Of a stretch of 64,000 nt of DNA, positions 56,501-62,845 are shown piece by piece (the stretch's first letter is position 1; each line of letters starts with the position of its first letter). This DNA comes from Eledone cirrhosa (Eukaryota). Where the stretch lies: the NCBI GenBank assembly GCA_964016885.1, contig OZ024750.1, positions 2,604,001 through 2,668,000 of the forward strand. The letters run 5' to 3'. The translations under genes and the position numbers were made by a program. A model generated the notes under the pieces. That model saw only the letters and a list, made by a program, of their open reading frames with translations, searched no databases and was not told where the DNA came from.

Positions 56501-59500
56501 TGTATGTTGTGGCTATATAAATATAATCTTTCAACATTGCCGCCGCTATATTCCATTGTTATTAGTATCATCAATCAGATTTATAAAATCCTTCTCAAGG
56601 GGGACATTTAAAATTTATTTAAACCAAGACAAGAAAGAAAATACAATCTGCGGTAAAAAACGGTCAGTTCCATTATAATCAGTGTATCACGATGCATTTT
56701 TTTTTAAAATTCAAATATATTTGTTTAGATCTCAAATAAAATGTTTGTTAAAAACTGAATTTAGAAAAAAAAAAAATAGGCTTTTTAAATGCGTTTAATA
56801 TTTTTCGACCGATCTCGTATAAATATATATAAATATACACACATACATACACACGTGTATGTATGTGTGTAGATGTATGTTTCTTTCTCCCTCTCTCTCT
56901 ATATATATATATATATATGTATATATATATATATATATATATATACACATACATACATACACACGTGTGTATGTGCGTGTATGCATACGCACATACATAT
57001 ATATAAACACACACAGACATTTATATTTAATATATATATATATAAATTTATATTAATATATATATATATATATATATTAATATATATATACACGTGTATG
57101 TGTGCGTGCGTGTATGTATCCGTACACATACATCTCTCTATACACACACACACACAGACAATTTTAAAAAAGATGTTCGATAATGTTACTATCAGCAGCA
57201 GTAGCAGTGAAGGAAGAAGCCATTGCTGCGCGTATGTGTGTGAATCATTGACTTGCTAGTCTTTAGAGCAAATAATTGACAGTTCTTCAAGATAGTGTGA
57301 TCGCAAAGTTTCCATCATTCGTTTCAAGACTGCTGCTACTAACAATTTAGCGGAAATATATATTTATATAAAGTAAGGTTTCTTCTTATTCTGTTCATTG
57401 GGCTTTCTTTATTAGGTATTTTCTATTTCATGTCGAAGCTATTGGTTCTAGCGATTCCCAACATAAGGATTAGTCATGGGTATCTTTAAATTTTTAGTAA
57501 AAGGGAATTATTATTATCATTATTATACATATATACATAGATATGTAGATATTTTTAAAAGTATTCTAAATTATTATATTATTATTTTGCATTTAAAATG
57601 ACTCTCCTTGGCGTTTGAAAATAAAATGGAAAATGAGAATTGTCTGGCATAACATTAAAGTATTTTTAGTGAAGTACTTTTCCTAAAATATTGTTGATGC
57701 CACAATCGTACATTTCACCATTTCTAAACACTAATCGCTAGAAAATAAATAAATAGCTACATTGATAAATAAATAAAACCATTTATTTGGGGGATAATAT
57801 TAATCAGGGAGAGAGGAAAAGAAAAAAAAATCCAATATTAACTGGAATTGCTTTAATTATGAGAAAATATTAACGTATGTCGAGTAAATTTTTGTTTTCG
57901 ATATATTTTCTATATAATCCTCAGTATTCTTCCCATTCAATGGACAGAATGGCTGGCTGACTGTCTTTATGTATTACAAGATTTTATTGCATCTTTTATA
58001 TTTCTCTTTTCAAATATCACAATTAATATATTTGAAATTTTAAACATTTTCCCAATCATTTATTCTATATTCTCACCATTTCATACTCTGCGTAAATGAA
58101 GGGTTTTTTTTTTTGGCTAATCTAATACTGAACTATTTCAAAATTGAGTATTAGAATGTCGATAAACCTTTATTTCATTTGAGACTTGAAAAAGAAAACA
58201 AGTTAAGGTGTAAATAGATGAAGAACTGATGCACATCTTGGATCTTATTTTTTTTCTTCATATTAATTAATACTCTTTACAAAATTATTCCAGTTAAGTA
58301 AAAAAAAAAAAAAGAAATTCTTATATCTAAATTAATTAATATCTAAATGGTATAAAGTTCTTTATTAGAGGACTTTTTCAAGGAGGAGAAAATATTTAGA
58401 CATCTTTTATTAGGTTGTGGACCGTCATTTTTGGAACAAAGCAAAAATGTGAGAATTTTTTAAAAAAGATGAACACTAAACTTGAAAAATGATTGTATAA
58501 TGCTAAGATTTCTTTCATGGACTGATATTTCTTTTTACAAAAAAAATAATAATAATTCTATTTCAAGTTATGAAATTAATCAAATTTTAAAAATATATCT
58601 AATTGTATCCGAACTCTATTAAATGATGAGGGTGGCGGAGTATATATGATGAGGGTTGGTTAGAACCAAATATTTTGTAGATAAATATGTAATGTGGTTC
58701 TAATAAAATGGCCTTTTATTTTCTACATGGCCTCAACAAATTGATAAAACTTCATTTTTATTTACTAACATCTTGAAATTTAAAAATGGGATTTCGTTGT
58801 ATTAGAAAAATGAGTGGCCTATTTCTTTGAAACTCAACGTCTAAAATGTCTAAAATTGACCTCCTCTCTTGAAAGACTACTCTCTCTATAAAGTAGAATA
58901 TGATACCATTTAAACCACATGTGAGCATTCATTTAGGCTATACATTTCTCCTTATCTCTACAGTTAACTTGTTGCAGTAATTATTATTATTTATTATAAT
59001 AAAATGAGATCCAAATCAATTGCACATTCTCTGCAACCGTACATCTTTTATTTTATATTTTCCATTCATATCAAACGAATGGAGTTTTTTTTTTTTTTAG
59101 CTCTTTTGCAAATACACTTTTTTTTAAAATAAATAATTTATGTAGTTGGTTATATTTAGATAATTTTACCAAATTACGTCTCTCCAGATTCTTAATTGTC
59201 TCAATACATATTTCTTCATTACTTTCAGCATGTATCTCGCAACGTAGCGTCTAATTCTCAGTAATTAAAACAAAAAAAAAAAAATAAAATGACAGAAACC
59301 ATTTATCTTCAGTTTGTACAACCAAAAGATTATATTTACTTCGTTTCCTAGGTATGCGTTGTAAGTGTTCGATTCCAACACTTCCCTGCCTCGAAAAAAA
59401 AAAAAAGCATTGCATGCACTAACTGTTGTCCATGCACTTTTCAATCTAAAAATCCTCTCAGGTTAATGTTGGTTGATAGCCTTCCTAAACTGCTTCTTTT

Positions 59501-60530: not shown

Positions 60531-62845
60531 ATGTCAAAAGGTTATGATACGTCAAAAGCATATGATGCTTCAAAACAGTACGCCTCAAAATCACAGGACT
60601 GGTCAGTAGGTTCTGGAATGGTGTTGCAGCCAGCACAGGGTGTAGCAGTGACTCTCCCAGGAGTCATGTATGGTAGCGGTTCTCAACAAGGTATCAGTGT
60701 TAATACTGGTTACCCTTATGGTCAGCAAAGCATGTTTGTTAATCAGACTCCAGGTATGTATTATTTTTTAAGCTATGAAATGTTTTCTTTGAATAATCTT
60801 TGGAGAAATTTTGAGCAAATCAAATAGCATTTAATGGCTTATAAACATTTGTTTTAACAAATTTTCAGAATTTTTTTTATTTTTTTTTTAAGAAAAAAAA
60901 AAATCAAGCAATTACATATTCAATCCTGGTCCTTTTTTTAAAATCTTCTGATTACATGTGACCCCCCCCCCCATTTTTTTAAAGACATTAAAATGAATTG
61001 AGGTTACATAAAAATAATGAACAAGCTTATCTTGTTTTCAATTTTAAAATTATTTTACTTCAATAATTAATAACTAAATCCTCACAAACATTTTTGAATT
61101 AATTTTTTAAAATTTATAAGTAAAATTTCTTACATAAAATTCTGATGGGTGGTTTAAATTTATATATGAATAATTTATAACAAAGAGCTTTGTATCATAA
61201 AATCAGCAGTGGAATTCCATTTTCAGTATGTTAATTTTTTTTATATAGTTCTAAAAAGGTAAATAATGTATTACTTTTCAGAAATTTACAGTAATAGAAT
61301 CATGGAAGAGTGAATGTTGAAAAAGGAGATTTGGATTTTAAAGGGATTTCATGTTAGATTATGAGTTATGAAAAACAGGCTGTAATTGTGATAAGAATTT
61401 GTTACTATAACCATAAGCAACTAATTAAGGGGTGACATTCTATAGTTTATCAGGAACCATACATAGAATAATTACGAAATAATTAACTAGTTCAGATGTT
61501 TAAATCTCTCTTAATTTTTTACTTCAGAGTTTTGAATAAAAATCATTTGAGAAAGTTAACATAGGACTATATATGAAATATTGTTTCACTAAAACAACAA
61601 ACATCTGAAAGTTAGGTTTAAAGAAGTAAACTTGTAAGAAATGCTAATAAAACCTCTCAAAAAAAGAGGTGAGCTTCTCCAAGTAGCAATGTTTTCTTTC
61701 ATTGTTTATCATGGATGTGTTTTGCAGTGTATATTGTGCTTTATCACTTTCCACACAGATGAGATATCGCACACACATACCAGATAAGTATCTTTCTTTT
61801 TCTAATGTTTTGCTTATCTTCTGCAGTTTTATACTTTTTCCATGGAAAAAGTATAAAACTACAAAGTATAAAATATAAAATACAAAAGTATATAATACTC
61901 CTACAAATTCACATGGTTCACAAATTGAATTAACCGTACATGAAAAATTATAGTGGAATATTTTTGCAACAGAAGATCAATGAAAAGTGCACAATGTGTG
62001 TATACTACACAAAGTTCCCAGACATACAAAATAGCTATTTGTGTGTATTGATAACATTTCAGGTGTTTTTCAACTTTCATCAAAGGAGGTTCATATTGGA
62101 AATTTATACATTAGAAACAAGTTTTAAACCAACAGTATATCTGGGTTAAACTTGTACCACTCCTTATTTATGGTTCACTCCTGTTAGATGTAAATCAATT
62201 TAGAATTATACATTGCATATACATTTTATCTAAAATATAAAAATTAATTATACATAAATTATTGTTTAGTTTTAATAAATAAATCAATTCTTTCTTGTCA
62301 CACTTTCGAACATAATTTGAGAAAATTAATATCTGAATCTAATTTTCCATGCAATATTCTCTATTTATCCCAAATTCTCATGTATTTAGAGAATATTAGG
62401 TGGACTGCAATGTTAAAACTTAAACTTTTATTTACAGACACTGGAGTATAAAACTCTATTTCTTATTGTAGGTATGATGTCTGTTGGACTTCAGAATTCT
62501 ACCTATCCAAACCTCATGCAAATGAGTTCTGCACCATTGCCCCAGTATCAGATGTATGGAGCTGCTGCTGTACAACAGATGCAAGCAATGAATATGTCAG
62601 GAGCAAGCTACAGCCAAGTGCCCTACTCACAGCAACACAAATATTTAGATAAAGATCTAAAGTACTCAGATGTTTATATGATGTCAGCAGCAAATTCTTC
62701 TAACATGCCTATGGTTGGAAATCCGATGACATGCATGCAAGTGAAGAACAACCCCAGTGCTCCAATGTACACCTACAACAGCCAGGGTATGCCTGTTGCT
62801 TATTCATCAGCCAGTAAGAACAACATGTCAGGCTCTCGTAAGTAA
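60531..62845 (+). CDS. Uncharacterised low-complexity Met/Tyr/Ser/Gln-rich protein, 198 aa, 2 coding exons, antisense within an ACTR5 intron
   Basis: Exons 60531-60753 (CAG|gtatgt) and 62472-62845 (tattgtag|GT); phase 1 join, 597 nt. An in-frame TAA lies upstream at 60498-60500. A strong polypyrimidine acceptor at ~60466 implies an upstream non-coding exon. Both exons share the same biased composition at the protein level without a DNA microsatellite. Confidence 0.82.

Follow-up and report, generated by a model that had tools for sequence, protein, structure and literature searches.

How does a plus-strand gene sit within ACTR5, the gene for the INO80 subunit Arp5, in the octopod Eledone cirrhosa: does it lie wholly inside one host intron, or does each of the two genes hold an exon of the other? 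We addressed this question in a 64,000-nucleotide (nt) stretch of contig OZ024750.1 (GenBank assembly GCA_964016885.1, positions 2,604,001 to 2,668,000; hereafter the window), together with 80 kilobases (kb) downstream on the same contig, where positions above 64000 are window equivalents. The analysis favours, with a probability of roughly 0.78, a separate three-exon coding gene antisense in ACTR5 that likely starts at a promoter of its own within host intron 7, likely bridges host exon 7 by splicing and encodes a predicted disordered protein of 198 amino acids (aa).

The host gene is complete on this contig. Searched by tblastn with Arp5 of Octopus bimaculoides (715 aa), ACTR5 appears on the minus strand as 19 collinear coding exons, from an ATG at 74285 to about 38600; the matches cover all 715 residues, and six of the 19 exons lie beyond the window end. 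The parts that matter here are the following.

Window-equivalent 64833-64640, minus strand: ACTR5 exon 6, AG/GT-bounded.
60134 to window-equivalent 64639, minus strand: ACTR5 intron 6, 4506 nt, containing exons 2 and 3 of the plus-strand gene.
60133-60017, minus strand: ACTR5 coding exon 7, AG/GT-bounded, 117 nt, phase 0/0.
50839-60016, minus strand: ACTR5 intron 7, 9178 nt, containing exon 1 of the plus-strand gene and a CpG patch.
50838-50740, minus strand: ACTR5 exon 8, AG/GT-bounded.
38602-50838, minus strand: ACTR5 coding exons 8-19, from tblastn with O. bimaculoides Arp5.

Exon 7, which the original prediction had recognised as Arp5, is real: it encodes residues 243-281 and is 93% identical to the O. 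bimaculoides protein across the tblastn match. The gap of about 9.2 kb to the next ACTR5 exon was also correctly described, with exon 8 starting at 50838. The exons for the N-terminal part of the actin fold, which the prediction did not find in 60134-64000 and proposed to seek by tblastn in adjacent sequence, are present on the same contig, the nearest at 64833-64640 and the farthest with the ATG at 74285; an actin-family match occurs 682 bases beyond the window end. Intron 6 is probably old, because a fragment with distant-type ACTR5 exon 6 sequence (P0016, 88% identical) leaves Arp5 at both ends of the exon.

The plus-strand gene was delineated from its open frame and from four of 24 listed sequencing runs (X1, X5, X13 and X24; presumed RNA, unstranded), aligned on 60445-60790. 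It consists of the following parts, UTR standing for untranslated region.

57145-57372, plus strand: exon 1 (5' UTR), start approximate, with a GT donor at 57373.
57373-60466, plus strand: intron 1, 3094 nt, GT-AG, with ACTR5 exon 7 inside it in antisense.
60467-60753, plus strand: exon 2, with 64 nt of 5' UTR and then the ATG at 60531; contigs of X1, X5 and X13 align.
60754-62471, plus strand: intron 2, 1718 nt, GT-AG; the loose 3' ends of X1 and X13 contigs are exon 3.
62472-63130, plus strand: exon 3, with the stop at 62843-62845 and a 3' UTR to about an ATTAAA at 63125, end approximate.

The coding segments 60531-60753 and 62472-62845, which the prediction had rightly placed in an ACTR5 intron (the 4.5-kb intron 6), join at GT-AG sites to give a continuous 597-nt frame whose only stop is the terminal one. 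The predicted transcript, from 57180 to 62845, is probably too short at both ends, with exon 1 starting near 57145 and the 3' UTR reaching about 63130; 648 letters of the X1 contig lie past its aligned part, which puts its end near 63124 assuming no indels. Nor is the gene unrecognised, as had been claimed, since its orthologs in O. bimaculoides, O. sinensis and Argonauta hians already have RefSeq and GenBank entries, labelled as an uncharacterised protein. The E. cirrhosa protein shares 188 of 198 residues (95%) with the Octopus protein (LOC115224337/LOC106873457) and 176 of 198 with Argonauta GAB1597308, these orthologs differing from it in species only. The protein has one locus in the whole 3.0-Gb genome, and the stretch 57158-57400 has a single match there. 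The estimated 5' UTR (57145-57372) holds three upstream ATGs that open frames of 28, 22 and 5 codons, and translational control by them is possible if the start lies that far upstream.

The case for interleaving is made by two spliced contigs. In X13 (relative C), a single 876-nt contig is aligned from exactly 60467 and carries 228 loose letters ahead of this point; the last 30 of these match 57346-57372 apart from three extra letters (27 matching) and end directly before the GT at 57373. In X1 (relative A, from a different study), the loose 5' part of a single 1015-nt contig is made up of the last nine letters of exon 1, followed by the start of exon 2. Both contigs run on into exon 3 through the join of 60753 to 62472, and they imply the very acceptor (60466) and donor (57373) chosen in the original prediction. 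The spliced transcript belongs to the plus strand because of the GT-AG polarity of its introns. A pattern for the exon 1 end occurs once in the window and in none of 100 shuffles, a result that speaks to uniqueness only, the pattern having been built from both sequences. Five GT[AG]AG donors occur in 54500-60466, and only the one at 57373 is preceded by the AAA exon end common to both contigs. Since exon 1 lies in ACTR5 intron 7 and exons 2 and 3 lie in intron 6, intron 1 of the plus-strand gene holds ACTR5 exon 7. A simply nested gene would fit entirely within one host intron, which the isoform seen does not. The two genes are thus likely interleaved in E. cirrhosa, an arrangement seen in two relatives and suggested here by the intact splice sites. 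In X5, one low-depth contig (12, versus about 2900 for the spliced form) continues into intron 2 at 60729-60789, which suggests unspliced RNA of either gene, or DNA.

A candidate promoter lies where such a transcript would begin.

54600-57500, no strand: CpG-retaining patch inside ACTR5 intron 7, likely the unmethylated promoter of the plus-strand gene.

Its CpG observed/expected ratio (o/e) is 1.07 (64 CpG in 2401 unmasked bases), whereas the ACTR5 body gives 0.33 on one side of it and 0.24 on the other. Only seven of 66 sliding 2.9-kb windows reach an o/e of 0.8, and six of these overlap the patch. The patch fits an unmethylated internal promoter, because octopus methylation is described as enriched on gene bodies and scant at promoters (PMC9476566). 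Within the coding part of exon 2, all nine differences from X1 are synonymous, and X13 differs at 10 synonymous and three nonsynonymous codons, a pattern that is one of purifying selection.

If the main plus-strand start of this species lay inside intron 6, with the upstream exon a minor or lost isoform, the gene would be simply nested. The confinement of the junction to relatives' contigs speaks for such a start, as do the two RefSeq accessions that each Octopus species has for a single protein, and a cluster of distant relatives in which two different upstream readings (P0012, P0013) split 18 codons before the Met, near the 64-nt 5' UTR part of exon 2. We nevertheless judge it very unlikely: the exon 1 end and its GT donor are intact here, the CpG patch lies at 54.6-57.5 kb whereas the o/e is 0.0 at 60001-60500, and X1 and X13 yielded one contig each, both of them with exon 1. 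The split in P0012 and P0013 also hints at an old 5' UTR intron; searched by tblastn, their N-terminal extensions match nothing upstream of exon 2. A local misassembly, with exon 1 or ACTR5 exon 7 out of its true order, might be suspected from the long TA repeats nearby (47.3-50.4 kb and 56.4-57.1 kb), but we give it practically no weight, the 19 ACTR5 and three plus-strand exons being collinear on one 55-Mb contig, with no N letters flagged in the 144 kb examined, and each element being single-copy where tested.

Several points weigh against an interleaved gene with its own promoter. The predicted junction from 57372 to 60467 is backed by spliced contigs from two related species and two studies, but these are two of four runs and E. 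cirrhosa itself is not among them. The X1 evidence for exon 1 amounts to nine AT-rich letters; the six fragments of X5, none of which reaches exon 1, are too short to show it; and X24 (organism G, whose study code is that of the best DNA matches) gave no contigs aligned on exon 2, possibly a false zero. For 59950-62900 no RNA record was listed as a match, an absence that says nothing about expression. The runs are RNA by presumption and their reads carry no strand, and ACTR5 exon 7 is assumed to lie inside intron 1 in the relatives' genomes as well. Further upstream exons are possible, 30 of the 228 upstream letters having been compared, and there may be other 5' ends, given the two RefSeq accessions per species. 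The seventh CpG-rich 2.9-kb window (start 47600) falls elsewhere in ACTR5, in a TA repeat.

On the interleaved arrangement, plus-strand transcription would begin in ACTR5 intron 7, at a separate promoter that is likely unmethylated; the pre-mRNA would be spliced from exon 1 to exon 2 over ACTR5 exon 7, as in the two related species, and the coding part in intron 6 would yield the protein of 198 aa, for which disorder is predicted. The spliceosome acts on the sense strand only, and both mRNAs can emerge intact and non-complementary because the exons of each gene are ordinary intron to the other. The whole plus-strand gene (about 57.1-63.1 kb) lies within the ACTR5 coding span (38.6-74.3 kb) on the opposite strand, and convergent transcription of the two units would overlap over about 6 kb. 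The head-on transcription put forward in the original prediction does follow from this layout, although it is equally true of any antisense nested gene; compared with simple nesting, interleaving lengthens the convergent overlap by about 3.3 kb and brings nascent plus-strand RNA over exon 7 and its splice sites. The most likely interaction would be passive transcriptional interference, which the two genes may tolerate because they would differ in level or tissue, rather than a dedicated antisense or editing switch. We favour passive coexistence with some interference, as has been argued for nested fly genes, whose divergence in expression is interpreted as interference (PMC5174743).

Plus-strand transcription across exon 7 and its splice sites could instead tune Arp5, by polymerase collision or in-frame skipping, where the plus-strand gene is strong. 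Exon 7 is phase 0/0 with a length that is a multiple of three, contig word depth over exon 2 ranges from 278 to 5800 in three relatives' runs (a poor measure of level), and the proximity of the two genes appears to be kept across octopods. We consider such a regulatory pair unlikely, given that all eight full-length Arp5 sequences in two cephalopod-type clusters keep exon 7, including four Logan-derived sequences on 140 contigs; no exon-7-skipped Arp5 was found among these eight, in which a rare skipped form could be missed.

The original prediction also held that the complementary pre-mRNAs are potential ADAR substrates, so that a nascent duplex over exon 7 might be edited and Arp5 recoded. 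By construction, the two pre-mRNAs are perfect complements of each other along about 6 kb, and coleoids are described as heavy recoders in the abstracts of papers on editing. The proposal is unsupported here, however, and we regard it as highly unlikely. The mature RNAs seen share no sequence, the X1 contig ending at about 63124 and ACTR5 exon 6 beginning at 64640, 1.5 kb away (longer 3' UTRs are conceivable); they are non-complementary because the exons of each gene fall in the introns of the other, and therefore only the nascent RNAs could pair. The predicted fold of exon 7 and its 200-nt flanks is only marginally more stable than the folds of 30 shuffled sequences (z = -1.5). A search for Arp5 in the supplements of two editing papers (PMC8382921 and PMC9068888) gave no entry, a weak negative that covers one small file each, the large tables lying outside the search. 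A hit was also lacking in 12 of the 22 supplementary files of PMC9476566 and part of file 16, and a literature search combining ACTR5/Arp5 with cephalopod words gave the gene name in no record among the matches listed, which is weak evidence. A>G counts in the relatives' contigs are differences between species and are not taken as editing.

What the inner gene encodes is probably a more valuable lead than the layout. A four-sequence profile run against 1.84 billion protein representatives recovered two clusters only, and a word search gave three hits among 41 candidates. The more distant cluster, of 11 members and about 52% identical, has an intron at the same place as intron 2 (P0007, P0008 and P0014 run into intron after NQTPG); from its divergence alone we infer that it is squid or cuttlefish. 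A pattern scan of metagenomes for the DNA around one distant relative, P0009, matched 37 stretches, none of them confirmed. By these searches the gene is an orphan restricted to one lineage, and its probable origin lies among cephalopods, within an ancient host. Accession numbers of Arp5 and the orphan are adjacent in three other octopods (GAB1597307/308, XP_014776303-307/310 and XP_029651059/071), and in Argonauta and O. sinensis the two share the same longest contig; the adjacency thus appears to be kept across octopods, evidence that is circumstantial for adjacency and not for exact nesting. One 199-aa low-complexity sequence (P0003) is identical under O. bimaculoides and O. sinensis accessions, and this identity is, on the sequences compared, strong conservation for a predicted disordered protein.

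The E. cirrhosa protein is made up of 15% Ser, 11% Met, 11% Gln, 9% Gly and 9% Tyr, with about 8% charged residues, and has no signal peptide-like or membrane-spanning/hydrophobic stretch and no Pfam family above cut-off. DUF6198 was rejected (expect value 0.034, below cut-off, in one of four members). An Atlas model is unconfident (predicted template modelling score 0.14, predicted local distance difference test 0.42), and its neighbours were rejected at <0.8 by features and a template modelling score <0.4 by structure. The protein is predicted to be disordered and Ser/Met/Gln/Tyr-rich; from composition only, we tentatively suggest an intracellular self-associating low-complexity type (condensate or structural polymer). 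Reflectins have a repeated [M/F]D-x5-MD motif and are Arg-rich, and FUS-type domains are rich in Ser, Tyr, Gly and Gln. The orphan resembles both by composition alone, being predicted disordered and Met/Tyr-rich, or Ser/Tyr/Gly/Gln-rich with spaced tyrosines. Unlike reflectins, it has no [M/F]D-x5-MD motif in any of four proteins and only one to three Arg, and unlike FUS it lacks an RNA-binding domain, with no Pfam family matching above cut-off. A bolder scenario, in which an old, coleoid-only, condensate-type gene was born de novo out of antisense transcripts within ACTR5, has kept its promoter free of methylation amid a methylated housekeeping gene body, and lowers Arp5/INO80 remodelling or causes skipping of exon 7, seems to us quite improbable. 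Searches of papers with the gene and protein identifiers found none, and no function on record; most subscription journals and large supplements lie outside that search.

Interleaved genes were reportedly described in the fly by Misra et al. in 2002. The pair described here probably belongs to a known but uncommon class, termed embedded antiparallel, which accounts for 16 of 749 human overlapping pairs, or about 2%, in Solda et al. (2008; PMC2330155): the inner gene lies inside the outer span, the strands are opposite and a junction crosses exon 7 (in relatives only). It differs from the pairs presented there in that the exons of either gene overlap nothing but introns of the other, the inner gene is an orphan limited to one lineage and the adjacency appears to be kept across octopods. 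As with the nested antiparallel genes of Lee and Chang (2013; PMC3814207) and Assis (2016; PMC5174743), where nested structures take in 9.5% of fly genes and 71% of the nested genes lie antisense, the inner gene is on the opposite strand, contains introns and has a conserved host; unlike them, it has its 5' UTR exon and likely promoter in the adjoining host intron. Those two papers trace most nesting to duplicates, whereas the inner gene here is single-copy and no evident duplicate. In PMC5534336, interleaved genes appear only in a figure legend, and such wording is absent from PMC4528329. The layout alone is a curiosity without evidence of cross-regulation, but the locus is a clean natural case of interleaving, in which the gene for a subunit of INO80 is paired with a conserved orphan of cephalopods that appears uncharacterised in the literature searched. 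It allows a direct test of transcriptional interference, of the escape of an internal promoter from gene-body methylation, and of whether nascent-RNA overlap feeds coleoid A-to-I editing.

Other features lie along the host gene or near it. A CIMIP2/FAM166-like gene at 34187-38588 (plus strand; Pfam PF10629 above cut-off at 37359-37580) runs towards ACTR5, and what is likely its final coding exon (about 38460-38588) adjoins the ACTR5 stop. A minus-strand AATAAA at 38403 would place the ACTR5 3' UTR over that exon, and this possible tail-to-tail exon overlap would be a better candidate for a duplex of mature RNAs than the pair discussed above. A second CpG-retaining patch at 31000-33000 (o/e 1.2-1.5) is probably the promoter of the CIMIP2/FAM166-like gene; a 128-aa acidic/Lys-rich stop-free stretch without a Pfam match lies at 31362-30979 on the minus strand. 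ACTR5 intron 1 contains a decayed retroelement with reverse-transcriptase remnants, antisense to ACTR5 (L002:5737-7380; RVT_1 below cut-off), and a degenerate TA repeat of about 3 kb in intron 8 (47300-50450) gives rise to spurious long open frames on both strands.

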